Assembly (NCBI GenBank): GCA_038874355.1
Contig: JAVZCO010000001.1
Location: 434,159 to 498,158 of the forward strand
DNA: 64,000 bases
Direction: 5' to 3'
From: Candidatus Pacearchaeota archaeon
Lineage (GTDB): Archaea > Nanobdellota > Nanobdellia > Pacearchaeales > GW2011-AR1
Below the pieces are notes generated by a model. The model was not told the origin of the DNA. It ran no database searches and worked only from the letters and a program-made list of their open reading frames with translations. This document shows positions 3,807 through 54,094 of this stretch, in pieces; within the stretch, counting starts at the first letter, position 1; the number at the start of each line of letters is the position of its first letter. The position numbers and the translations under genes were made by a program.

Positions 3807-3928
3807 GAGCCCGTAGCTCAGCCCGGTTAGAGCACCGCTCTTATATGAAGAAGATTCAATAGAATCTTCATTTCCAGGCTAAATGCTAGGAAAGGCGGGG
3901 GTCCTCGGTTCAAATCCGAGCGGGCTCA
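3807..3928 (+). tRNA. tRNA-Ile with anticodon UAU and a 49-nt intron at the canonical 37/38 position; no encoded CCA
   Basis: Acceptor gagcccg/cgggctc pairs perfectly (7 bp). D arm gctc-agcccggtta-gagc. Anticodon stem ccgct/ggcgg with loop c-t-TAT-a. Intron tgaagaagattcaatagaatcttcatttcc... contains the hairpin gaagattc/gaatcttc. T arm ctcgg-ttcaaat-ccgag, discriminator A. Confidence 0.7.
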
Positions 3929-4709: not shown

Positions 4710-4940
4710 ATGAAAAAAAACAAAAAGAGAAAAAGAAAAAATAAAAAAATAGAAAATATGACTTTTTCAGAATTAATTGAAAAAAATCCCAAAGCTGCTA
4801 AAATTTTTTTTGAAAAAGGAATGAATTGTGCTTTTTGTCCTCTTGCTTCAAAAGAAACTTTAGAACAAGGTGCTAAATCACATAATATTGATATAAAAGA
4901 ATTAATTAAAGAATTAAACAAAAACAAAAAGAAAAAATGA
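4710..4940 (+). CDS. DUF1858-like small redox/disulfide protein (hybrid-cluster-protein-associated type)
   Basis: 76 aa; MTFSELIEKNPKAAKIFFEKGMNCAFCPLASKETLEQ with an FCP motif. Overlaps the downstream IscU start by 4 nt, which suggests an operon. Confidence 0.45.
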   Translation: MKKNKKRKRKNKKIENMTFSELIEKNPKAAKIFFEKGMNCAFCPLASKETLEQGAKSHNIDIKELIKELNKNKKKK

Positions 4941-5404
4941 ATTATAATAAAAAAGTAATAGAATATTTTACTAAGAAGAAATATGTAGGAGAAATAAAAA
5001 ATGCAGATGGTGTTGGTGAAGTGGGTAATATAATATGTGGCGACATAATGAAAGTTTATATAAAAGTTGGTAAAAAGAATAAAGAAGAATATATTGAAAA
5101 TATAAAATTTAAAACTTTTGGCTGTGTCGCGGCAATTGCCTCTTCTTCTGCTTTAGCAGAAATCGCCATTGGAAAGAAATTAACCGAAGCTATTAAAATA
5201 ACAAATAAAGATATATTAAATAAATTAGGTAATTTACCAACAATTAAAATTCATTGTTCTATTTTAGGAGAGCAAGCTCTTACTGAAGCAATATATAATT
5301 ACTTTGTGAAAAATAAAAAGAAAATTCCTAAATTTTTAGAAAAAAAACATAAATTAATAATGAGAGAAAAACAAGCTTATAAAAAGAAATTTTCTAATCG
5401 ATAA
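4937..5404 (+). CDS. iscU: IscU/NifU-like Fe-S cluster scaffold protein
   Basis: Conserved cluster ligands in context: ICGDIMKV, FKTFGCVAAIASSSALAE and IHCSILGEQAL. Confidence 0.7.
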   Translation: MNYNKKVIEYFTKKKYVGEIKNADGVGEVGNIICGDIMKVYIKVGKKNKEEYIENIKFKTFGCVAAIASSSALAEIAIGKKLTEAIKITNKDILNKLGNLPTIKIHCSILGEQALTEAIYNYFVKNKKKIPKFLEKKHKLIMREKQAYKKKFSNR

Positions 5405-5437
5405 ATTTTTAATATTCCTTATTTTTTTATTTATATT

Positions 5438-6796
5438 ATGTTAGAAAATAAATTAATAAGAAAACTTATTTTTTACACATTAGATAAAACTATAAAATTT
5501 AAATTTTATAATCTTGATAATAACACAAAAAAAATTGCAGAAGATAAATATCTTATAACTTCTTCTGTTTTAAAAGCAATTGATAAACAATATAATCAAG
5601 GGATTTCTAAAGGATGTAAAGATAAATTAGAAAATATCTTCATAAAAAAGCAATTTTTAAGAGTTATAAAAAAAAGAAAATTGCCTTATCAAGATTATCA
5701 GATTGGATTTTTAACAGTTAGCCCAACAAATATATGTGATTTATCCTGTAAAGATTGTTATGCAGGCTTTATAAAAAATAAACAAACTTTACCATTTTCT
5801 ATTCTAATAAGAATATGGGAGGATATAAAAAATATTTTTAAAACTAATTTTATGGTTATCTCTGGAGGAGAGCCTACTTTATACGAGTATGAAGAAAAAG
5901 GAAAAAAATATGTATTAGAAGATTTATTAGAAAAAAATCAAGATATTTATCATTTAATGTATACTAATGGAAGAAGAATTGCAGAAGATTTTTCTTTTGT
6001 TAAAAGAATAAGTGAGTTAGGAAATTTAACTCCTGCTATAAGCATAGAAGGTTTTGAAGAAAAAACGGATTTAAGAAGAGGAAAAGGAATGTATAAAAAA
6101 ATAATTAAAGCAATGGATAATTTAAGAAAAGAAGGAATTCCGTTTGGGATTTCTTTAACAATGAATAAATACAATATAGAAGAATTATTAAGTGACGAAT
6201 TTATTAAAGAAATGTTTGATAAAAGAGGAGCCGTTTATGCTTGGTCTTTTCATTATATGCCTATAGGAAAAAATCCTTCTTTTGATTTATTAATAACACC
6301 AGAACAAAGATTATGGAGTTTCAAGAGAATAAGAGAATTACTAAAACAAGGATATTTTATTGCAGATTTTTGGGATTTAGGAACAGTTGCTGGTTGTATG
6401 GCTTCTGGAGGTGATGGAGGAAGTTATGGTTATATAGATTGGACGGGAAATATTTACTCTTGTGTTTTTATGCCTGATCAAGATAAAGATGAAACAAAAA
6501 ATAATGTTTATAATTTATACAAAAACGAATATAATCTAAAAGATGCTTTTGATACAGTTCTTCATAAAAAAATAAGAGAAATTAAAGCAACACAAAAAAA
6601 TAAATGTAATTTATGTTTGCCTTGCACAATTAGAGATAGAAGTAATATTTATTCGGAAATTATTGAAAAATACGGAAAATATGATTCTCCAACAAAAGAA
6701 TACAGGGAAAAAATAATTAAAACAGGATTAATGGAAAAATATAATAAAGAATGTGAAAAATTATTTTCTAAAATTTGGGAAGAATATTTAAAATAA
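5438..6796 (+). CDS. radical SAM enzyme with C-terminal SPASM-like auxiliary cluster domain
   Basis: CDLSCKDC (CxxxCxxC) at about aa 101; ISGGEPTL; C-terminal Cys-rich CMASGGDGGSYGYIDWTGNIYSCVFMP ... CNLCLPCT. Confidence 0.7.
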   Translation: MLENKLIRKLIFYTLDKTIKFKFYNLDNNTKKIAEDKYLITSSVLKAIDKQYNQGISKGCKDKLENIFIKKQFLRVIKKRKLPYQDYQIGFLTVSPTNICDLSCKDCYAGFIKNKQTLPFSILIRIWEDIKNIFKTNFMVISGGEPTLYEYEEKGKKYVLEDLLEKNQDIYHLMYTNGRRIAEDFSFVKRISELGNLTPAISIEGFEEKTDLRRGKGMYKKIIKAMDNLRKEGIPFGISLTMNKYNIEELLSDEFIKEMFDKRGAVYAWSFHYMPIGKNPSFDLLITPEQRLWSFKRIRELLKQGYFIADFWDLGTVAGCMASGGDGGSYGYIDWTGNIYSCVFMPDQDKDETKNNVYNLYKNEYNLKDAFDTVLHKKIREIKATQKNKCNLCLPCTIRDRSNIYSEIIEKYGKYDSPTKEYREKIIKTGLMEKYNKECEKLFSKIWEEYLK

Positions 6797-14950: not shown

Positions 14951-15025
14951 GGTCCCGTAGCTCAGCCCGGTTAGAGCACTGGCCTTTTAAGCCAGGTGTC
15001 GGGGGTTCAAATCCCCTCGGGGCCA
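14951..15025 (+). tRNA. tRNA-Lys(UUU), no encoded CCA
   Basis: Acceptor ggtcccg/cggggcc with a U3:G70 wobble. D arm gctc-agcccggtta-gagc. Anticodon stem ctggc/gccag with loop cTTTTaa. T arm ggggg-ttcaaat-cccct, discriminator A. Confidence 0.85.
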
Positions 15026-15099: not shown

Positions 15100-15327
15100 C
15101 TTTTTGTCGAATTCGGATTATTGAGACTTTGTTTTAATAAGCTCAGCCACACCTTTTTCATATTTGGAAGCAGGATATATTGGCCAGAATATTGTTTTAG
15201 CAGCTGCAGAAAATAATATAGGGGCATGTCCTGTTAGCGGTTTGTAGATGATACGTTAATAAAAATATTAGATTTGACAGAAGGGGAAATACCAGTTTAT
15301 ACAATAAGTTTAAGGAAAAAGAAATAA
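15100..15327 (+). pseudogene. nitroreductase-family gene remnant, frameshifted and truncated, with no start codon
   Basis: One frame reads YIGQNIVLAAAENNIGACPVSGL*, the classic nitroreductase C-terminal core. The next frame reads DDTLIKILDLTEGEIPVYTISLRKKK*. No intact ORF. The region is more GC-rich than its surroundings. Confidence 0.45.
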
Positions 15328-15355: not shown

Positions 15356-16342
15356 ATGGAAGTTGATATAATTAATATTTTTAATTCAAATAAAAAAATT
15401 TCTGTGAAAATAGTTAATTTATTGGACAAATCAAAACTCTTAAATGATAAAGAGAAATTTTTTGATAGTTTATTAGATGATATAAAAAATGATGGAGAAA
15501 AAAATCACGTAGGAGGATTTTTAAATGAAAACTTATTAAAAAACCAGTTAGAAAGAGAAATTTTTGACAAAAGAATAATTAAAGTTTCAATAAATACGTA
15601 TAAAAAACTAAAAATTAAAGATATAAAACATTTAATAAAAGAAGTTATTAGTCATGTTAAAGCTTTTTTAAATTCTAAAAAAATTTTAGTTTATGTTTTT
15701 CCTACATTTTCGAACTTTATAATCAAAAAAATGAATGGTTGTAGTGGCTTTCTTGCTTACAAAAACATTATTCATATTTATTTATACCCGACAAAAAACT
15801 GGAAAACAAACTTTAAATGCACTCTTTTACACGAATTTGCTCATTGTATACAACCTTACTATTCTTATAAAATGAACCTTTTCGATCATCTAATTGCTGA
15901 AGGTTTAGCAGAACATTTTCAAATGGCCTTTACTAAAAAAAGAAATGCTATTTATTATACTTCTAAAGATAACAAAAAAATGGAGGCTTCTGTTTTGACT
16001 TTTGGTATTGGTTTACAAAGAATCCTATTTTCTATTATAGATTCAAATAGGAATAATAAAAGTATCAATTTTCCGGAAGAAATCAGGCCTTTTGAATATG
16101 CTATTGTATTGCACAAAGGGGAACAGGAATTAGCAGAGAGATGCTATTCTTTTTTAAAAGCAAAAAACAAAGATGTTTACATTGATGATAGAGACCTAAA
16201 TTTTAAAGATAAAATGGATTATGCTGATTTTCTTAATGTTCCTTATAAAATAATTATAGGAAAAAACTCATTAAATTCGAAATTAGAAATTAAAACTTCA
16301 AAGGATGTTACTATATATAAGACACTTGAGGAACTAATATGA
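15356..16342 (+). CDS. HExxH zinc-hydrolase domain fused to a class-II aminoacyl-tRNA synthetase anticodon-binding domain (HGTP_anticodon-like)
   Basis: LLHEFAHCIQ HExxH motif at about aa 160. C-terminal 90 aa PFEYAIVLHKGEQELAERCYSFLKAKNKDVYIDDRDLNFKDKMDYADFLNVPYKIIIGKNSLNSKLEIKTSKDVTIYKTLEEL matches the ProRS/ThrRS/GlyRS/HisRS anticodon-binding fold pattern. Overlaps the next gene by ATGA. Confidence 0.6.
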   Translation: MEVDIINIFNSNKKISVKIVNLLDKSKLLNDKEKFFDSLLDDIKNDGEKNHVGGFLNENLLKNQLEREIFDKRIIKVSINTYKKLKIKDIKHLIKEVISHVKAFLNSKKILVYVFPTFSNFIIKKMNGCSGFLAYKNIIHIYLYPTKNWKTNFKCTLLHEFAHCIQPYYSYKMNLFDHLIAEGLAEHFQMAFTKKRNAIYYTSKDNKKMEASVLTFGIGLQRILFSIIDSNRNNKSINFPEEIRPFEYAIVLHKGEQELAERCYSFLKAKNKDVYIDDRDLNFKDKMDYADFLNVPYKIIIGKNSLNSKLEIKTSKDVTIYKTLEELI

Positions 16343-17366
16343 TAAAGCCTAAAAAATTAGAAAAAGGAGATACCATTGCTTTTATTGCCCCAGCAGGTGG
16401 TTTAGCGGCATTAGTAAAGCATAGATTAACATTAGCTAAATCTTATTTTGAGAAAAATGGTTATAAAGTAAAAATCTATCCAACTGCATTGAAAAATATT
16501 GGCTTTAGTTCTGATACACCAGAAAATAGGGCAAAAGATGTTAATGATTCCTTTTCTAATCCAGATGTAAAAATGATACTATGCACTATAGGAGGAAATT
16601 CTTCTCATCAAATTCTAGATATTTAGATTTTGATTTAATAAGAAAAAATCCTAAAATATTTTGTGGTTATTCAGATATAACAACTTTGCATTTTGCATTA
16701 TATACAAAATGTAATTTTATAACTTTCTATGGTCCAACGGCAATTGCTGAATTTGGAGAAAAAATTAATTTCGAAAAGTATACTGAAGAGTATTTTTTTA
16801 AAGCAGTTGCTTCTAATTTACCTATCGGCAAGGTTTCACCATCAGAAAAATGGACTGATTGCAGAAAAGCAAATTGGCTAAAAAAAGAGGATTTACGATT
16901 AAAAAGAGAATATAAGAAAAATAAAGGTTATGAGTGGTTAAGAAAAGGAAAAGCTGAAGGAAAAATTATTGGCGGTTGTATTACTTCAATGATGCATACA
17001 AAGGGAACTGAATATTGGCCTGACTTTTCAGAAAAAATTCTTCTTTTAGAAACACCTGAAGGAGAATCTTTTTTTAAAGGAGAGCCCTTATCAAACATAG
17101 ATGGTTTTTTAGCAGATTTAAGGCTACTAGGTATACTTAAAAAAATAAAAGGTCTTATTTTTGGTAGAGGATTTGGGTATTCTGATGACGAGATAGAAAA
17201 ATTAAAAGAAATAATACTCTTTAACACACGAGGGTTTGACTTTCCAATTTTATACGGATTAGATATAGGTCATACTGATCCAAAAATAACTATTCCTTTA
17301 GGAGTAAGCGTTACTTTAGATTCTGAAAAAAACATTTTTTCAATAGATGAATCTGGAGTAAATTGA
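16339..17366 (+). pseudogene. S66 LD-carboxypeptidase (LdcA/MccF family) interrupted by a -1 frameshift near 16620
   Basis: ORFs 16339-16626 and 16581-17366 together give a complete S66 protein: IAFIAPAGG ... CTIGGNSSHQILD | YLDFDLIRKNPKIFCGYSDITTL. The frames join after a 1-nt slip at about 16620. No slippery heptamer is visible. Confidence 0.6.
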
Positions 17367-17370
17367 TTTC

Positions 17371-17586
17371 ACGCAACCCCCTTTTTATTGTAAAATCGTG
17401 TCCCGCCACCTCCGATTTCTGACTTCTTGCCATTCTAATCTGCCTCTGTAGGGGTTGCCACCGAAAATTCTCCTGTTGTTGCCTTCGTTAAAATTCACAA
17501 AACGAAAACAAAAAACCCAATTTGCTTCGCAAACAAAGTCTAACATTGGTTAAGCGGTTTCGCTCGCTACACCCAAAGATTTTTCT
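17371..17586 (+). repeat. 216-bp GC-rich intergenic element, copy 1 (identical to 21470-21685); candidate structured ncRNA or recombination repeat
   Basis: Perfect identity with copy 2 over 216 nt. About 45% GC in a roughly 25% GC genome. Contains the long-range complementary pair gcaacccc ... ggggttgc. Starts 5 nt after the S66 stop codon. Confidence 0.85.
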
Positions 17587-17628
17587 AAAAAAACGGGCAG
17601 GGGCTTTTTATAATGGACAATTAGTTTT

Positions 17629-18306
17629 CTAGAAAAAATACTTATATATTTTTCCAATTTTTAACTCTTTTTTATTTCCACTTTTGGAAAAAAAATAAGC
17701 GGAATTGATTCCAATTATTTTATTGGAAGAATTTTTTAAATATATTCCCGTTCCTTCTGGAAGACCAATAATTTCCATATCGGTTTCTTCAATAATCTTT
17801 AATATCTCTTTATCATATTTTTCTTCATAGTGACAAAATACGCCTCTTTCGTTCAATAAATTCATCCCTTCTAAATCAACTAATTTAAATTTATTTTTAT
17901 CTAGGGGTCTGGCAGTAATAATGCTTTTTGTTAATATTATCGCTCCGGCACTTATCCCATAAACTACTTTACCTTCTTTGATAAATTTTCTCAATATTTC
18001 AATAAAATTAGAATCTTTCAATTCTTTTAATAACCTAAAAGTGTTTCCTCCACCGATAACGATTCCTCTAACATTGTTTAAATCCTTAATTGACTTATCA
18101 TTTAGAGTCGTCCACATTTCAAAATTACTATGGTTGAAAGGTGAAAATAAATTTTCAATCATCCAATTTAAAGAAGATTGAAATTCTTCTTTTTCCCTTG
18201 AATGAGGAATAAAAATTATTCTTCCATTTCCTACACTCTTAAAAAATAACGAGTTTATCTCTTTTATTTGTTCCCCTTTCCCTCCTCCAGATAGTATCAA
18301 TTCCAT
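17629..18306 (-). CDS. S51-family peptidase (dipeptidase E / cyanophycinase-like)
   Basis: 225 aa; GGGNTFRLL and nucleophile motif GISAGAIIL; Rossmann-like class-I glutamine amidotransferase-like fold pattern. Confidence 0.7.
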   Translation of the reverse strand: MELILSGGGKGEQIKEINSLFFKSVGNGRIIFIPHSREKEEFQSSLNWMIENLFSPFNHSNFEMWTTLNDKSIKDLNNVRGIVIGGGNTFRLLKELKDSNFIEILRKFIKEGKVVYGISAGAIILTKSIITARPLDKNKFKLVDLEGMNLLNERGVFCHYEEKYDKEILKIIEETDMEIIGLPEGTGIYLKNSSNKIIGINSAYFFSKSGNKKELKIGKIYKYFF

Positions 18307-18326: not shown

Positions 18327-19511
18327 CTATTTTTTTAATCTTTCTATTAACCCTAAAGGCAAATCATACTTTTGGCCTAATTCTTTTTTAGAAACACTAG
18401 GCAAAATAATTTTTTTATTTTGTTCTATAGCTATCTTAATATATTCTTCATTTAATAGTTTTGGACTATCAAAGTATCCTGATTTTGTACCTTTTTTTAG
18501 TTGATTGAGGTAATTCTCTAAATTAAAGTATTCTCTGCAGTAATTTTGAAGATAATCTTTAAACTCTTTCTCACATTTTTTATATGTTTCTTCTATTCTT
18601 TTTATTTCTTCCTCAAATATGGGATTTAATAAATCTAAAAGCCCATCAGTTTGACTTTCTGATGCTCTAATTCTCGCTAAAACCTTTTTGGTTAAATATC
18701 TGATTTTGTTCCCTGGTCCTTTTGCTGAAGGAAAAATTCCTTGATTGGATGCTTCATTTAATGTTAGAATATGGTCTCCCACATATTGTGCATCCTCTTT
18801 CTGAAGATATGGGAAATTTGAAATTATTTTTTCAGTTATTTTTTTTAATTTTTCAATTTCAAAAACAGAATTATAACCATTGATTACTGCAACTAATCTT
18901 TCTAAGGCCATTCCAGAATCAACTAATTTTCTATTTTGAGGATCAATGTACGCTATATTCCACAACTCCCATTCTGTGGGAATATGTCCAATTTCCATTC
19001 GCTGCCCCTCTAAAGGGCCATCCTTAATCCTCCAAGACAATTTTGTTGGATCAAGTCTTCTAATTTCTATTCCTAACGAAGAATATCTTTTGGCATTTTC
19101 TGAAATCTCTTTTTTGTTATCTGGAACATTTAAAAAAATTTCATTAGGCGGAACCCCAGTCGTAATCAAATAGTCAATCATATAATCTGTGATCTTTGAA
19201 AAATTTGTATTGTTAAAAGAAAAAACTTCTAGCATCTTAAAGTTTGTTAAATGTCTAGGGGAATATCCAACTCTATAATCGTTATCCGTTCTTAGACAAT
19301 TTTGTATTCTTGCTAACTGTTGCATATTGGACTCTTCATTTCCCCTAAATACATTATCATATTTAATTCCCCCACAAATCATAAATAACACGGCCGCACT
19401 TTTATTTTCGGGGAGCAGGTTTTCTGATTTTTCAGTGCAAAAACCTAGTTTAGAAAAATAATCCAAGTATTCTACTTCTACTTCTTTTAATTCTTTAATT
19501 TTTTTATCCAT
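18327..19511 (-). CDS. standalone alanyl-tRNA synthetase catalytic-core paralog (class IIc aaRS N-terminal domain only, 394 aa)
   Basis: Aligns to the AlaRS N-terminus: YLDYFSKLGF (FLDFF.SKGH), SAAVLFMICGGIKYDNVF (LLFTNAGMNQFKDVF), IQNCLRTDNDYRVGYSPRHLTNFKMLEVFSF ([35 protein letters not shown]). Lacks the tRNA-recognition, editing and C-Ala domains. Confidence 0.7.
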   Translation of the reverse strand: MDKKIKELKEVEVEYLDYFSKLGFCTEKSENLLPENKSAAVLFMICGGIKYDNVFRGNEESNMQQLARIQNCLRTDNDYRVGYSPRHLTNFKMLEVFSFNNTNFSKITDYMIDYLITTGVPPNEIFLNVPDNKKEISENAKRYSSLGIEIRRLDPTKLSWRIKDGPLEGQRMEIGHIPTEWELWNIAYIDPQNRKLVDSGMALERLVAVINGYNSVFEIEKLKKITEKIISNFPYLQKEDAQYVGDHILTLNEASNQGIFPSAKGPGNKIRYLTKKVLARIRASESQTDGLLDLLNPIFEEEIKRIEETYKKCEKEFKDYLQNYCREYFNLENYLNQLKKGTKSGYFDSPKLLNEEYIKIAIEQNKKIILPSVSKKELGQKYDLPLGLIERLKK

Positions 19512-19566
19512 TCTATAGTGGTATAATTTAGATATATTTATAAATATTCTTATTTTCTTTTAAAAT

Positions 19567-20646
19567 ATGGGTATTCCAAGATTAAGATATCAGAATGAAA
19601 TGTGGGATGTGAATCTACCCTCAATTTTGGCATATACTTTTAAAAAAGAAGATATAGATCTTTTTATTAGAGGCAACTCAATACCCTTAGATTTTGATAC
19701 TAATTTAACTGAGAGGTGTAACGCTAATTGTAAATATTGTGCAACACAGGGAGGAAAATTGGATGTGAGATTTAATTACGATAATAGTTTACCTAAATTA
19801 ACAGATGAGCATATTTCAGAGATAATTAAACAATTAAATTTGCTTGGAACAAAGACTTTCTTTTTGTGTAGCAATGGAGAACCCTTACTAAACCCAAAGA
19901 GATTTCTAGATATTTTAGATAAAGCGGGCGATAAAGAGATAAATATTATAACATATACCAATGGAATAACATTAAATAAAAATATTTTAAAGGAATTATA
20001 TAAAAGAAAAGTCAATTTAGTAATAAAATTAGAGTCTTTAAATCCAAGAAAAAACGACGAGATTATCTTTGGCAAGAATGAACCAAAAAACAAGTCTTAC
20101 AATTATTATAGTTTTAATAATCAAAAAGTACCTCGGGGGATCATTGAAGCATTTGAAGTTTATGGAAGTGACTCTAATTGTTTAGGTATCGAAACAATTA
20201 TCTTAAAAGACAATATTGATGAAATAATAGACATCCGAAATTGGGTTTATGATTTGGGAAGCAGTCAATTCTTAAAGCATTTATATCCCCTAGGATATGT
20301 AAAAATTAGTAGGGAAGAAGTTATGCCAGATAATAAAAAAGAAAAAGATTTAGTACAAAAAATAATCGCTTTCGATTCTAAGTATGGTTTTATCTATCCT
20401 TCATTTCAAACGCCCGACCACTATTCTTATGATTCAAGAAGATTTATGAATAATTGTGTGAATATTTATGGTTTTCCTTTTAGAATGTTTGCTCATGAAT
20501 TTGGAGGAATCTATCAGTCTTCTCAAATAGTTACAAAGAACTTTGGATTTGGAACAGAAAGAATTATCTCTCTTTTTGACTCTAAAGGTAATATTAATAT
20601 GAAAGAATATTTTAATAAAATTGAAGAACAAATCAAAAATGAATAA
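19567..20646 (+). CDS. radical SAM enzyme
   Basis: CNANCKYC (CxxxCxxC) at about aa 51; SNGEPLLNP glycine-rich SAM motif. Divergent from the AlaRS paralog across a 55-bp spacer. Confidence 0.7.
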   Translation: MGIPRLRYQNEMWDVNLPSILAYTFKKEDIDLFIRGNSIPLDFDTNLTERCNANCKYCATQGGKLDVRFNYDNSLPKLTDEHISEIIKQLNLLGTKTFFLCSNGEPLLNPKRFLDILDKAGDKEINIITYTNGITLNKNILKELYKRKVNLVIKLESLNPRKNDEIIFGKNEPKNKSYNYYSFNNQKVPRGIIEAFEVYGSDSNCLGIETIILKDNIDEIIDIRNWVYDLGSSQFLKHLYPLGYVKISREEVMPDNKKEKDLVQKIIAFDSKYGFIYPSFQTPDHYSYDSRRFMNNCVNIYGFPFRMFAHEFGGIYQSSQIVTKNFGFGTERIISLFDSKGNINMKEYFNKIEEQIKNE

Positions 20647-21433
20647 TCTTTCAAGAATTACATTTGGAACATGGGGATTGCCAGAATGGAAGGATTATTC
20701 ACAAGATTATTGTAAAGAACTATTTGATTTTGCTTATAGAAATGGAATAAAGAGTTTTGATACAGCATTAGTCTATGGTGGTGGAAGGATGGAACATTTT
20801 CTATCTTATCTTCCAAAAGAGTGTTTTATTGCAACCAAAATTCCTGCAAAAAATAAATCAAAAGAAATAATTGATGCCTATGATTCGTTATGGATTAAAA
20901 AATGTATAGATCAATCAAGAAAAAGATTGAAAAGAGATTCTTTAGATTTAGTTCAGCTTCATAATTGGGATTATAATTGGAATAATTATCAAACATTAAT
21001 TGATTTAATGGTAAATTTAAAAGACACTGGATTAGTAAAAAACTGGGGGATCTCCTTACCATTTGAATCTCCGAATAATCACAGCGAAATATTGGACGAA
21101 CCTGTAATAAACTTTTTTCAAGTACATTATAATATCTTACAACAACAAAATAAAGATATTATTAAAAATTTAAAACAAAAAAACAAAAAAGTTCTTCTGC
21201 GATCTGTTTTATTGCACGGATTTTTGATGGGTTCAATCAATCCTCCTTTTTGTAAAAAGTATAATTTAGAAAAACAAAATTTAAAGAAAGAAAGGGATAG
21301 GTTATTTTTAGGTTTAAATAAAAGAGAAATACTAAAATATTGTTTAAATAACGCTTTTTTAGTAGGGGCAGATTCTATCGTTTTAGGCATAACTAAGAAA
21401 GAGCATATAACAAGTTTGGAAGAATATTTATAA
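20621..21433 (+). CDS. aldo/keto reductase family oxidoreductase
   Basis: ITFGTWGL N-terminus typical of AKRs, FDTALVYGGG, and a (beta/alpha)8-like pattern. Overlaps the radical SAM stop by 26 nt, indicating an operon. Confidence 0.65.
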   Translation: MKNKSKMNNLSRITFGTWGLPEWKDYSQDYCKELFDFAYRNGIKSFDTALVYGGGRMEHFLSYLPKECFIATKIPAKNKSKEIIDAYDSLWIKKCIDQSRKRLKRDSLDLVQLHNWDYNWNNYQTLIDLMVNLKDTGLVKNWGISLPFESPNNHSEILDEPVINFFQVHYNILQQQNKDIIKNLKQKNKKVLLRSVLLHGFLMGSINPPFCKKYNLEKQNLKKERDRLFLGLNKREILKYCLNNAFLVGADSIVLGITKKEHITSLEEYL

Positions 21434-21469: not shown

Positions 21470-21685
21470 ACGCAACCCCCTTTTTATTGTAAAATCGTGT
21501 CCCGCCACCTCCGATTTCTGACTTCTTGCCATTCTAATCTGCCTCTGTAGGGGTTGCCACCGAAAATTCTCCTGTTGTTGCCTTCGTTAAAATTCACAAA
21601 ACGAAAACAAAAAACCCAATTTGCTTCGCAAACAAAGTCTAACATTGGTTAAGCGGTTTCGCTCGCTACACCCAAAGATTTTTCT
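21470..21685 (+). repeat. 216-bp GC-rich intergenic element, copy 2 (identical to 17371-17586)
   Basis: Perfect direct-repeat copy located 37 nt after the AKR stop codon, and preceded by aaaaagtcctgccc, which is nearly the reverse complement of the gggcaggggcttttt motif that follows copy 1. Confidence 0.85.
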
Positions 21686-21894
21686 TGATAAAATGGGAAA
21701 AATTCAATCCAGACTTCTTTATTAGGATAGAAAAAATATTCTATTTGTAGAGATAAAATCTGGAAATTATGCAAAATATATAAGCAATTTTGAAGCTGAA
21801 TTAAAAGAATAGCGCAGTATATAATTTAAAAAATAATTATCACCCGCCTTTGACTTGAGAACCATCAGCCGTTATTGCTACAGAGAATAAAATT

Positions 21895-51328: not shown

Positions 51329-54094
51329 TTATGTTTTATTTTGAATATTTTTTTGTTTTATTGCTCTTTTTGAAAAAATCTTAGATATGTCTAAAGGTAT
51401 TATGCTTTTCCCTTGATATTTATTTATTACATAAGAAATTTGTTCACTTGACCAGCCCGTTTTACTTAACTGTTGTTTTATTGTATTATATGTCATTCCT
51501 TGATGTATAGCATTATTAATATATAGTAATAGATTATAAATATCATTTCTATTTTTAAATAATTTGGATTCGTAATGAATTCTATACCACTGAGATATTA
51601 AGATATAAGAAATAAAAGCACAAATCAATATAAAAGACCATAATATCCATGCAATAGTCCATGGTTTACAATCACTTCTACAATTTTTCCAATTCTCCTC
51701 TTTTTCCTTTTCACAAATTTTGTTATAATTACACTTTTCTAATAGAAAATCTATTTCAATTTCTTCTAAAGTTGGAGATATATATAAATTAAGATCTTTA
51801 TATTTAATTTCACCAAAGTAAAAGAAGGTTATTTCTCTTTCTTTTATATCATCAAAAATTATAGAAAAAGAATTGTTTAATTGTTTTGTATTATTATAAG
51901 AAGAGTATAAATCAAAATTTACTCCTTTAATAGCATCTGGAAAAATTAAATAATTTTTTATTTCTCTTGAAATTTCTTCTTTTGGGGATATTTTTAATCG
52001 AAATATTCCTAAAATTTGTTCTATTGAATTATCATAATATGCATAAAGATATTCTCCTTGCATATACATAATAATATTATCCTGCTGCCAGCCGGCAATT
52101 GCTTTTTTATATTCTTCTTCTCTTTCTTCAGAATAATTTCCTAAATCTTCTAATTCTTCTAAATCATTTAAATTTATTCTTTCGTAATTTACATAATAAG
52201 GAAGATTTTCTTTTAGTGTTATATTTATCTTATAGGGAATTTTTAAACTTAATAATTTTACTGCAATTTCTTCATATTTTTTTTCGTCTCCTCCTGCAGC
52301 ATTATAATCTATTTGAATTTCATCTAATTGTCTTGTTATATTATCAATATTTAAAACTTTCTTTATATATGGTTGATACTGCGAAGGAAAAGAACTTATC
52401 TGTAAAGTTAAGTTTTGCAATCTTTTTTTGTAAATATCTATTGTTGAATTTATTTTTTCTTTTGGAATAGAAATATTTATATTAAAATCCTTTTCGCTCA
52501 TTAAACCTTCAGAATCTATAACAGAAACCTTTATTTTAAAATTTGAAGAAGAAACATTCATGAAGGTATATTCTATACTATTATTAGTTGTTTCTATACT
52601 TTTATTTGGATCAAAATTCCAGATATATTTAACTATGCTTTTATTGTTTAGTGCTTGTGCTTGAACATAAAATTTTGTTGGATATGCTAAAAATGCTTTT
52701 TTTGGATATAAGTCTTTTATTATAGGAAAAGATAAAATTTTAATTGTTTCATTAAAAATTTTTTTATTTCCTATGTAAATTTCTATTGTGTGGTTTCCAT
52801 ATTGAGATGGTAATGAAAAATTTGCTTCATCTAGATTTAAAATAGTGTAATTAAAAGATATTTTAGATTTTTCTATATTTGTTTCGTAAATTTTATTTGT
52901 TGAAGAATAACCGCCTAATTCATTATATTCAATTGAAATATTAGATATTTTTATATTTATAGGAACATTTGCTTTGAAATTTATTGGAATTACACAACCA
53001 TCCTTATTTTCAATACAAGAAGAATCATAATATTCTTGAATGTAATTCATTATATAATCTTTTAAGTAAGAGTCTTCTACTTTTATTTTACCTATATTAT
53101 CAAAAACATAAGATTCTGCAAAGATAGAATAATCATAAGAAAAATCTTCTGGAATTTGTTCAGGATTCCCATAAAAACCACATTTTTCTCCAGATGATTC
53201 TCTTTTAATTTTATAGTCGCCTAAAGAATTTGTTTTTTTTATACAGATAAAATAAAAATCTTCATTATAATTCATGTCTTCATTTTTTAAAGAAATGTTA
53301 CAAAAATATTCTCCCTCTTTTATATTTTTTGTAAAATCTAAAGTACATCTTCCTAGTTCTTCTCCATCTAAATTAAAAATGGACATTCTTATGTTATTTT
53401 CATACTTTGAATTGTTAATAATATATGCACCTAAGTTATAATATTTTGATGGTTTTAATTTTATTCTTTCACAATAATAATTATCTTGAGATAAAGAAAC
53501 TAAAGTCGAAGAAGATAGATTACTAAAACAACCATAATTTTTACTATCAGAACAGATTATAGAAGAAGAAAATTTGTCCGATCTCCATTCTATTTCTTTA
53601 TCATATAATAAATCTATTTCTAGAGGATTTTCACATGAATACTGGTTTGTTACTTCCATATCAAAACTAAATTTTGATATAGAGCTTATTTTATCCCCAA
53701 CTAATTTAAAAGCAAGTGTATAACTTTCCCCTTTTTGAAGAGTAATGCTTTTTTCTTCCAAATCTATATTAGAAGTTTTATAATAAGGGATACAATTATA
53801 AGAATTACAAAAAAAATCTTCACCATAATTTAAAGAATTTAATAATATTAAATCAAATAAATTAATAGAACCGTTAATTTTAGAATTTCCTTTGATTAAT
53901 AAATCATAATATTCGTCTTTAACAGATATATTTATCCATCCTTGTAAATTTTCTCCAGGTTTGTATTCTTTTTTTATGTCATAAGAGAGATTACCTAAAT
54001 GTATATAAGCATTTGCTAAAAAAAAGTTATAAAAAAAATTATAAAATAATATTATTAAAAATAAAAAAAATATAAATAATCTCTTTTTCCCCAT
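51329..54094 (-). CDS. large secreted Cys-rich, N-glycosylation-rich surface protein with C-terminal TM anchor
   Basis: 921 aa, signal peptide, many N-x-S/T sequons, C-terminal WTIAWILWSFILICAFISYILI helix. Confidence 0.45.
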   Translation of the reverse strand: MGKKRLFIFFLFLIILFYNFFYNFFLANAYIHLGNLSYDIKKEYKPGENLQGWINISVKDEYYDLLIKGNSKINGSINLFDLILLNSLNYGEDFFCNSYNCIPYYKTSNIDLEEKSITLQKGESYTLAFKLVGDKISSISKFSFDMEVTNQYSCENPLEIDLLYDKEIEWRSDKFSSSIICSDSKNYGCFSNLSSSTLVSLSQDNYYCERIKLKPSKYYNLGAYIINNSKYENNIRMSIFNLDGEELGRCTLDFTKNIKEGEYFCNISLKNEDMNYNEDFYFICIKKTNSLGDYKIKRESSGEKCGFYGNPEQIPEDFSYDYSIFAESYVFDNIGKIKVEDSYLKDYIMNYIQEYYDSSCIENKDGCVIPINFKANVPINIKISNISIEYNELGGYSSTNKIYETNIEKSKISFNYTILNLDEANFSLPSQYGNHTIEIYIGNKKIFNETIKILSFPIIKDLYPKKAFLAYPTKFYVQAQALNNKSIVKYIWNFDPNKSIETTNNSIEYTFMNVSSSNFKIKVSVIDSEGLMSEKDFNINISIPKEKINSTIDIYKKRLQNLTLQISSFPSQYQPYIKKVLNIDNITRQLDEIQIDYNAAGGDEKKYEEIAVKLLSLKIPYKINITLKENLPYYVNYERINLNDLEELEDLGNYSEEREEEYKKAIAGWQQDNIIMYMQGEYLYAYYDNSIEQILGIFRLKISPKEEISREIKNYLIFPDAIKGVNFDLYSSYNNTKQLNNSFSIIFDDIKEREITFFYFGEIKYKDLNLYISPTLEEIEIDFLLEKCNYNKICEKEKEENWKNCRSDCKPWTIAWILWSFILICAFISYILISQWYRIHYESKLFKNRNDIYNLLLYINNAIHQGMTYNTIKQQLSKTGWSSEQISYVINKYQGKSIIPLDISKIFSKRAIKQKNIQNKT

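Follow-up and report, generated by a model that had tools for sequence, protein, structure and literature searches.

This account concerns a 64,000-nucleotide stretch of the genome of a Candidatus Pacearchaeota archaeon (assembly GCA_038874355.1, contig JAVZCO010000001.1, positions 434,159 to 498,158), referred to throughout as the window, and in particular a minus-strand open reading frame (ORF) at 18327-19511. The ORF codes for 394 aa from ATG through stop, exactly as reported in a preliminary description made from the sequence alone, and its product resembles the N-terminal part of alanyl-tRNA synthetase (AlaRS). The window has a G+C content of ~24% and carries the archaeal markers RNA polymerase subunits H, B and A', EF-2, thermosome and FttA. 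An identical protein is recorded at NCBI under the name [quoted passage not shown] (MAG, metagenome-assembled genome). The NCBI taxonomy places Pacearchaeota within the archaeal kingdom Nanobdellati, which we equate with DPANN. The gene is one of four in a block bracketed by a direct repeat, with the following features.

17371..17593, no strand assigned: direct repeat, left copy (blastn, 216 nt at 100%; repeat family D1, 223 nt at 99-100%).
17629..18306, minus strand: peptidase S51, PepE/cyanophycinase-like (Pfam Peptidase_S51, E=1.4e-27; NCBIfam PepE 74 bits, below cutoff).
18327..19511, minus strand: AlaRS-like paralogue of the group termed clade A below, 394 aa, with an aminoacylation domain and a shrunken tRNA-recognition domain, lacking editing and C-Ala domains (Pfam, NCBIfam, PDB sequences, structure model, Foldseek, orthologues).
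19512..19566, no strand assigned: divergent intergenic region of 55 nt with a palindromic A/T element, ATATTTATAAATAT (sequence inspection).
19567..20646, plus strand: radical S-adenosylmethionine (SAM) enzyme, 359 aa, divergent from the AlaRS-like gene (Pfam Radical_SAM).
20621..21433, plus strand: aldo-keto reductase, overlapping the end of the radical SAM gene (Pfam Aldo_ket_red, E=2.4e-32).
21470..21692, no strand assigned: direct repeat, right copy, 36 nt past the aldo-keto reductase stop codon (same repeat family D1).

Eight orthologues of the AlaRS-like protein were found at 57-76% identity. Each is 390-392 aa long, with conservation reaching the last residue and the last helix, and the dN/dS of the gene is 0.14-0.18. 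On the strength of this constant length, the conserved C-terminus and the low substitution ratio, the gene is real and under purifying selection.

The protein belongs to the class IIc aminoacyl-tRNA synthetase (aaRS) core, by the Pfam threshold for tRNA-synt_2c (PF01411; 96 bits, with a cutoff of 30.3 and E=2.7e-27) and by an AlaRS-type fold. TIGR00344 (alaS) matched with E=1.4e-29, residues 10-343 falling on profile positions 1-366 of 847. Equivalog cutoffs were not reached with TIGR00344 (103 bits against 457), the archaeal TIGR03683 (23.7 against 744.7) or NF002436 (74 against 529), and by this standard the protein is not a canonical alanine--tRNA ligase. Solved bacterial AlaRS N-terminal fragments were matched with E ~1e-20 using HMMER, and on a profile built from 30 full-length bacterial AlaRS only positions 4-359 were covered. 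The 418 stop-to-stop ORFs of the window gave no editing or C-Ala match with bacterial and archaeal AlaRS profiles. The four-domain architecture of canonical AlaRS (aminoacylation, tRNA recognition, tRNA_SAD editing with HxxxH/CxxxH, and DHHA1 C-Ala) is thus incomplete in this protein.

The AlphaFold model of the protein (pLDDT 75, pTM 0.75) was compared using Foldseek with the 441-residue Escherichia coli AlaRS fragment and the Aquifex aeolicus fragment, giving ~425-438 aligned columns at a TM-score of 0.63-0.65. The top matches were all AlaRS catalytic fragments, followed by the GlyRS alpha subunit. These fragments are made of the aminoacylation and tRNA-recognition domains, and their alignment with the model therefore points to a compacted, reduced tRNA-recognition domain in the AlaRS-like protein. 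Near the C-terminus the conserved ELGKKYDLPLGLIERL was weakly aligned by HMMER to the AlaRS helix YDTYGFPVDL. E. coli 1-441 (PDB 3HXU) and A. aeolicus 1RIQ were the best matches in both sequence and structure, the fold being shared over ~430 aligned columns together with motif 2, motif 3 and the D235/G237 region. Compared with these canonical bacterial fragments the window protein is 18-23% identical, has ~35 residues deleted between W170 and E209 and a motif 2 loop 4 residues shorter, and carries substitutions at M43, V214, G239 and N303. Compared with full-length bacterial AlaRS it has no editing or C-Ala domain and falls well short of the equivalog cutoff, as given above.

The preliminary description had read the ORF as a standalone class IIc AlaRS-core homologue devoid of editing and C-Ala domains. 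That reading stands on the Pfam score and the restriction to AlaRS profile positions 4-359, and the motif pairs it cited are those aligned by HMMER. A C-terminal AlaRS half encoded nearby, which together with the lack of any other alaS it had named as grounds for abandoning the paralogue interpretation, is not present among the ORFs of the 64-kb window, nor is a full-length alaS. Its further statement that the tRNA-recognition domain is missing has to be corrected, as the comparison of the model with the 441-residue E. coli fragment, the TIGR00344 match and the PDB-sequence matches all indicate a reduced version.

Active-site residues were mapped by sequence alignment and by a signature table over 160 sequences, of which ~130 are canonical AlaRS; canonical positions are given in E. 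coli numbering. Substrate binding in E. coli AlaRS involves M43, R69, W170, N212, D235 and G237 (PMC12467997), and N303 and D400 are the residues that recognize G3:U70 (PMC10036535). Equivalents were retained in the window protein for R69 (R74), W170 (W160), E209 (E182), W211 (W184), N212 (N185), D235 (D198) and G237 (G200), as was the motif 3 Glu-Arg pair (E204, R205). Four positions were substituted: M43 by G48, V214 by A187, G239 by A202 and N303 by A263. All four are near-invariant in the ~130 canonical AlaRS, which read M, V, G and N. Among the nine members of the family the N303 position is A in eight and S in one. D400 may match D383 of KYDLP, going by a weak HMMER alignment, or be lost under another register.

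By alignment, then, the class II apparatus for ATP and for the alpha-amino and carboxyl groups is retained, and two residues of the alanine side-chain pocket have been swapped for smaller ones (M43 to G, V214 to A). The set from M43 to G237, with V214 and G239, departs from that of canonical AlaRS as judged from these alignments. Since the ligands of ATP and the alpha-amino group are retained and four positions are substituted, we infer that the adenylate chemistry was kept and that the amino-acid pocket was altered, probably enlarged.

The family is extremely sparse. An exhaustive profile search of 1.84 billion representatives returned only 7 proteins with E<=1e-30, ordinary bacterial AlaRS reaching merely ~77-97 bits, and the family-specific motifs occurred in 0 of 185,579 GTDB species genomes. 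The nearest relatives outside the family are other short AlaRS-like groups: fusions of ~655 aa with a nucleotidyltransferase domain (P0013, P0014 and P0029, the last being the only distant relative recovered by a word-index protein search with broad alignment), a form of 390 aa (P0016), and a group of 420-450 aa (P0018, P0020, P0021 and P0041, with P0019 as a fragment). These share a four-position signature with the window family and are grouped with it here as "clade A". Its members carry G or A at M43, A or S at V214 (G in P0021), A, S or C at G239, and a residue other than N at N303 (N only in P0019); M43, V214 and G239 are changed in every one of them. N185 and D198 are invariant through the family and all clade A groups, as are R74, W160, E182 and R205. 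IMG/VR contained no relatives of any clade A group, and matches in phage databases were ordinary AlaRS-like segments at ~22% identity; a viral origin was accordingly rejected.

In a simple neighbour-joining tree, in which long-branch effects are possible, clade A received a bootstrap of 100/100 and was well separated from archaeal AlaRS. With the bacterial AlaRS profile the window protein reached 136 bits, and with an archaeal one, made from 27 metagenomic archaeal sequences, 24.8 bits. The 27 sequences were drawn from 120 archaeal AlaRS loci detected in a metagenome scan with the A/T-biased archaeal motif DTGYGLER. These loci comprised Methanobacteriales-like sequences (by their N-termini), Methanococcus aeolicus (by name) and sediment lineages, with none identifiable as Pacearchaeota. 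Judged by the two profile scores, the protein is of bacterial type despite its DPANN host, and is not a piece of the vertically inherited archaeal AlaRS. A second short AlaRS-like group of 352-385 aa, "clade B" (P0022, P0028, P0060 and P0091; bootstrap 96/100), was seen in the same material. It has S or T for W170 and G for M43, retains V214, and is another uncharacterised family of AlaRS-core paralogues.

A gap of 20 nt separates the AlaRS-like stop codon from the S51 gene downstream, which has the same orientation, and the two genes therefore probably form one operon. The ATATTTATAAATAT element lies ~21-35 nt from the start codons of the AlaRS-like and radical SAM genes and could be a shared archaeal TATA region. 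The radical SAM enzyme has a CxxxCxxC motif and lacks SPASM or auxiliary-cluster cysteines. Its best NCBIfam and PADLOC matches, all below cutoff, were a W-cofactor maturase, prokaryotic viperin and MoaA; its model (pLDDT 86) had SkfB, a viperin-like protein, MoaA and BlsE as Foldseek neighbours at TM ~0.5. Anti-phage defence was considered and rejected, as the AlaRS-like protein had no PADLOC match and the radical SAM enzyme resembled prokaryotic viperin only over half the length, in the generic radical-SAM core. The likely start of the aldo-keto reductase is the ATG at 20639, giving 264 aa, as called in L004, a Logan unitig of the same organism.

The same block was recovered from other genomes and metagenomes. 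In every family locus with a readable adjacent gene (the window, L001-L006, L132 and L135), the AlaRS-like gene stood beside a divergent radical SAM gene, and an S51 neighbour was also found in L001-L004 and L006. An aldo-keto reductase followed the radical SAM gene in every contig reaching past it, except L006. S51 and reductase genes were present in most family contexts, and the genes outside the block vary between relatives. In a 40%-identical member (L134) the radical SAM, reductase and AlaRS-like genes follow in that order on one strand. The radical SAM query returned 22 orthologues at 46-80% identity.

More distant members of clade A (~25% identical) also occur in such surroundings. L007 encodes an AlaRS-like/nucleotidyltransferase fusion, a CxxxCxxC radical-SAM-like protein, a homologous reductase (32% identical to that of the window, E=3e-34) and a NUDIX protein. 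L008, from a Candidatus Peribacteria MAG of the Candidate Phyla Radiation (CPR), encodes S51-like, AlaRS-like, nucleotidyltransferase, radical SAM and reductase proteins. The radical SAM proteins of L007 and L008 differ from the window type. Directly downstream of the AlaRS-like/nucleotidyltransferase/radical SAM/reductase block of L008 lies a 445-aa ORF, 4830-6167 (+), that looked like AspRS by eye. A 13,022-bp contig of JGI 3300072015 has two AlaRS-like genes (385 and 428 aa) around a radical SAM and an aldo-keto reductase gene, together with a NUDIX gene, a DegT/DnrJ/EryC1 aminotransferase, a sigma-54 activator and, at the contig end, a phage-type integrase.

In other archaea, in three lineages (L129/L130, L131 and L133), the same radical SAM/S51 block has a class I LysRS-like gene in place of the AlaRS-like one. 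These sister cassettes were located through their radical SAM orthologues.

L129, 3417-8282: LysRS-type sister cassette.
L131, 1669-6588: LysRS-type sister cassette.
L133, 584-3750: LysRS-type sister cassette.

The radical SAM proteins of L129 and L131 are 49-58% identical to that of the window. The reductase was seen in L129-L131, the contig of L133 stopping at the radical SAM gene, and the window reductase is 56% and 39% identical to reductases of these cassettes. The LysRS-like genes of L129 and L131 scored 269-336 bits on TIGR00467 (lysS_arch; cutoff 147.55), and that of L133 is 51% identical to that of L129. A truncated RlmN/Cfr-like radical SAM methylase is present in the L129 and L131 blocks, and the L129 block is followed by diaminopimelate dehydrogenase and decarboxylase genes. 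As the orthologous radical SAM/reductase/S51 blocks may carry a class I LysRS-like gene instead, the stable core of the cassette is the radical SAM and reductase pair, usually with S51, and the aaRS-like partner is interchangeable. Such interchange is hard to square with a housekeeping role and fits a variable aminoacyl contribution to a pathway. The 15 cassette loci contained no tRNA or other Rfam RNA, and a code-expansion cassette of the Pyl type was rejected on that result.

The two copies of the direct repeat bracket the four-gene block at a spacing of 4099 nt and have a G+C content of ~42% against a background of ~24%. Just inside the block, GGGCAGG follows the left copy and CCTGCCC precedes the right copy. 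These strings are mutually complementary; on an excised circle, or at a tandem junction, they would lie on either side of one repeat copy. The L004 unitig covers precisely this block, its ends lying 30 nt within each repeat copy, and is compatible with an integrated cassette as well as with an empty site accompanied by a 4.1-kb circle. The L001 cassette occupies another chromosomal site and is bordered on each side by imperfect direct repeats of lesser length (families D5 and D7, 89-91% identity, spacing ~4.25-4.3 kb) that belong to a related element, and neighbours differ between close relatives. The perfect repeats of the window, the degenerate repeats of L001 and the differing chromosomal neighbours indicate that the cassette is probably horizontally mobile.

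Two further observations were made on the repeats and their surroundings. The G+C-rich elements by the reductase in the window (21470-21692, minus strand) and in L001 (7819-7991, plus strand) have a common 5' motif, GGGUGUAG(C/U)GAG...CGAAACC..UUAA. A structured RNA gene was tried as an explanation of the repeat and rejected: Rfam gave only a sub-threshold match in L001 (RNaseP_arch, E=0.37, 11.9 bits) and none in the window, and folding z-scores of -0.35 to -1.4 were not significant. The left repeat copy begins 4 nt after the stop codon of an S66 LD-carboxypeptidase gene (LdcA/MccF-like; 16339-17366, plus strand). A frameshift near 16600-16626 breaks it into overlapping ORFs, one at 16339-16626 and the other at 16581-17366, which may mean a pseudogene or an assembly error.

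Taken together, these data incline us, with moderate confidence, to regard the AlaRS-like protein as an accessory, mobile, adenylate-forming paralogue of a bacterial-type AlaRS N-terminal fragment with altered amino-acid specificity, and not as a housekeeping AlaRS. The enzyme would activate a small amino or hydroxy acid, different from alanine or bulkier than it, as the acyl-adenylate, and the acyl group would be passed to an acceptor tied to the radical SAM/reductase pair. The S51 protein would act as the matching hydrolase that trims, recycles or detoxifies the product. Across the cassette variants the accessory genes are largely nucleotide- or RNA-directed (viperin/MoaA-like radical SAM, sub-threshold; nucleotidyltransferase; NUDIX; RlmN/Cfr-like methylase; DegT-type aminotransferase). 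They faintly suggest an aminoacylated nucleoside- or nucleotide-type compound, perhaps an aminoacyl-AMP look-alike, as the preferred product, by analogy with ascamycin and its transferase AcmF (discussed below). An RNA 3' end or a protein lysine might serve as alternative acceptors.

A comparable logic is known from the pair that modifies elongation factor P (EF-P), namely EpmA (PoxA/GenX), a paralogue of the LysRS core, and EpmB (YjeK), a radical SAM aminomutase. EpmA, too, is a class II aaRS core paralogue with a partly lost tRNA-binding apparatus and genetic linkage to a radical SAM enzyme; the amino acid that it activates is a non-standard one and goes to an acceptor other than tRNA, and the window protein may do likewise. 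The two systems differ in that EpmA is of the LysRS and not the AlaRS family, its radical SAM partner is a pyridoxal-phosphate-dependent aminomutase, and it has no aldo-keto reductase or S51 partner. No link to EF-P was seen for the AlaRS-like cassette.

Several points weigh against the proposed role. For the cassette, neither an acceptor molecule nor a carrier protein nor a dedicated tRNA came to light, and the fold neighbours of the radical SAM model are generic and mixed (maturases of ribosomally synthesized and post-translationally modified peptides, viperin, MoaA and BlsE, TM ~0.5). The AlaRS-like model is poor at residues 31-100 (pLDDT 36-54), which cover motif 2 and the M43-equivalent region, and the estimate of pocket size was drawn from alignment. 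The LysRS-like genes of the sister cassettes exceed the lysS_arch equivalog cutoff, so that cassette-borne aaRS genes may be genuine tRNA-charging enzymes. Finally, the essentiality of AlaRS in the host is an assumption, the search for alaS covered the 64-kb window, and Pacearchaeota are related DPANN archaea.

The preliminary description had proposed a repurposed enzyme rather than the housekeeping synthetase. This is supported by the conserved cassette, the flanking repeats, the rarity of the family, its bacterial affinity and the relatives in CPR bacteria. The substitution of several canonical residues that it noted holds for M43, V214, G239 and N303 in the signature table of 160 sequences, and the phylogeny it put forward as a check places clade A apart from archaeal AlaRS. 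Its further statement, that no AlaRS-core paralogue of defined non-canonical function is known to have been characterised, does not hold: the ascamycin pathway has AcmF, a truncated AlaRS-like aminoacyl transferase (PMC12945691).

The alternative that the AlaRS-like gene encodes a genuine mini-synthetase dedicated to the cassette, charging tRNA-Ala or another tRNA via the acceptor stem, is plausible, if to our mind rather unlikely. Plausible roles for such an enzyme would be the supply of aminoacyl-tRNA to the pathway (cf. AcmD, VlmL) or self-resistance against a product that mimics aminoacyl-AMP. The aminoacylation and tRNA-recognition architecture is retained, the LysRS-like genes of the sister cassettes, with scores beyond the LysRS equivalog cutoff, look like functional synthetases, and the two AlaRS-like genes on one contig are reminiscent of the AcmD/AcmF pair. 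There is also a precedent in the 461-aa Tupanvirus mini-AlaRS, which lacks the N and D identity residues and still charges tRNA-Ala (PMC10036535). That enzyme is likewise a natural AlaRS cut to its catalytic and tRNA-recognition domains; it is close to the canonical AlaRS of its host, specific for alanine and able to replace yeast AlaRS (PMC10036535), whereas the window protein is a deeply branching, divergent paralogue whose pocket has changed and whose gene context looks biosynthetic. Against a tRNA-charging role stand the changes at M43, V214 and G239, which are invariant in the sampled canonical AlaRS, and the much reduced tRNA-recognition part. Moreover, no tRNA gene was present in any cassette locus, and the cassette holds no known aminoacyl-tRNA-dependent transferase (Fem/GNAT, cyclodipeptide synthase or LanB-like).

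[quoted passage not shown] The domain content is like that of the N. equitans alpha subunit, DPANN genomes are reduced, the catalytic residues are intact, and a canonical alaS in the source genome is assumed, the 64-kb window being what was covered. Were it the sole AlaRS of its host, it would be the smallest natural cellular AlaRS known. According to the account of Arutaki et al. 2020 given in PMC10036535, as far as that account extends, the N. equitans alpha subunit is half of a vertically inherited housekeeping AlaRS and works with the beta subunit. Compared with it, by description, the window protein is of bacterial type (136 against 24.8 bits, the reverse of what an archaeal alpha piece should give), is borne on a cassette and has no beta-type gene in the window, where no ORF in any frame encodes editing or C-Ala. 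The rarity of the family among 1.84 billion representatives and its absence from the GTDB species genomes imply that it cannot be the general AlaRS of Pacearchaeota. The gene also sits in a repeat-flanked cassette at differing chromosomal sites in relatives, has homologues with the same partners in CPR bacteria, and is replaced by a LysRS-like gene in the same cassette position elsewhere.

A transferase of the AcmF type, which would move an aminoacyl group from aminoacyl-tRNA onto a small-molecule amine and form no adenylate, is very doubtful. AcmF, of the ascamycin pathway of Streptomyces sp. 80H647, is a truncated AlaRS-like aminoacyl transferase that alanylates a nucleoside sulfamate with Ala-tRNA as donor and is adjoined by a de-alanylating hydrolase (Zheng et al. 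2024; PMC12945691). Compared by description, the two proteins share the same truncation, each being a standalone AlaRS homologue with aminoacylation and tRNA-recognition domains only, and both lie outside the canonical AlaRS clade. AcmF also works in a small-molecule pathway in which a neighbouring hydrolase reverses the aminoacylation, an arrangement to which the window cassette may be likened, and the accessory genes of the cassette are nucleotide-directed. AcmF is, however, defined by the loss of adenylate-forming residues (N219Q, D232E). The equivalents N185 and D198 are invariant in clade A, and such a transferase is therefore disfavoured. The window protein keeps these and the other ATP and amino-acid ligands, and instead alters the side-chain pocket (M43G, V214A). 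Its partners (radical SAM enzyme, aldo-keto reductase and S51) and its DPANN and CPR hosts differ as well.

A functionless, decaying remnant of a horizontally acquired bacterial alaS, as the truncation and the scores far under the equivalog cutoffs might suggest, is effectively refuted by the selection and conservation data: a dN/dS of 0.14-0.18, a constant 390-394 aa conserved to the C-terminus in at least 9 lineages, catalytic residues invariant across ~25%-identical relatives, and conserved gene partners.

Standalone homologues of AlaRS fragments are already known as a kind, and NCBI names many of them "alanine--tRNA ligase-related protein". Two such plasmid-borne proteins of cultured bacteria were examined as possible members of the family and rejected; they belong to different families, since they have a canonical pocket and no cassette.

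L136, 7923-8825: AlaRS-related protein of Rhizobium plasmid pRL9b6, 300 aa; canonical M43/V214/G239, no radical SAM or reductase neighbours.
L137, 8962-10128: AlaRS-related protein of a Streptomyces sp. NBC_01558 plasmid, 388 aa; canonical M43/V214/G239, no radical SAM or reductase neighbours.

Matching segments were also seen in 36 Rhizobium plasmid records, most of them annotated "alanine--tRNA ligase-related protein". Full-text literature searches turned up no account of clade A and its pocket signature, nor of a repeat-flanked radical SAM/reductase/S51 cassette with an exchangeable aaRS-like partner in DPANN or CPR organisms.

Repurposed aaRS cores have recurrently yielded new chemistry, as in EpmA, GluQRS, the amino acid:carrier-protein ligases and AcmF, the last being to our knowledge the sole characterised repurposed AlaRS core. 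The present family departs from AcmF in keeping the adenylation machinery, in its remodelled pocket and in its radical SAM, reductase and peptidase companions with LysRS-like exchange. As a tentative extension of the preferred reading, an adenylate-forming accessory paralogue, clade A might represent a new functional class of aaRS-derived ligases carried in a mobile "swap-in aaRS" cassette of DPANN and CPR organisms. In such a cassette the radical SAM and reductase enzymes would build or tailor a nucleoside/nucleotide-type or amino-acid scaffold, the aaRS-like enzyme (AlaRS- or class I LysRS-like according to lineage) would attach its amino acid, and the S51 protein would remove it. The outcome might be a family of aminoacylated nucleoside-type compounds, such as toxins, antivirals or mimics of aminoacyl-AMP, or else RNA or protein bearing a new aminoacyl modification. 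If an aminoacylated metabolite or modification is indeed made, it would join a very short list of specialised biosynthetic abilities ascribed to organisms of the DPANN and CPR groups, and the four genes would constitute a directly testable system for heterologous expression.

Other features of the window were recorded in passing. A 328-aa ORF at 15356-16342 (+) is a fusion of a Zn-protease-like DUF2268 domain (HExxH) with the C-terminal part of ProRS, comprising the motif 3 region and the HGTP anticodon-binding domain (NF008979 positions 293-421 of 437). It is a second aaRS-derived fragment, less than 3 kb from the AlaRS-like gene. At 51329-54094 (-) lies a 921-aa ORF with no Pfam match at E<=0.001. 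A 100-nt intergenic segment at 15141-15240, just downstream of tRNA-Lys (14951-15025), has a G+C content of 42% against 24% for the genome and gave no Rfam match at the gathering threshold. At 3807-3928 (+) Rfam detected a tRNA of 122 nt (54 bits) that was missed by ARAGORN and is probably an intron-containing archaeal tRNA.

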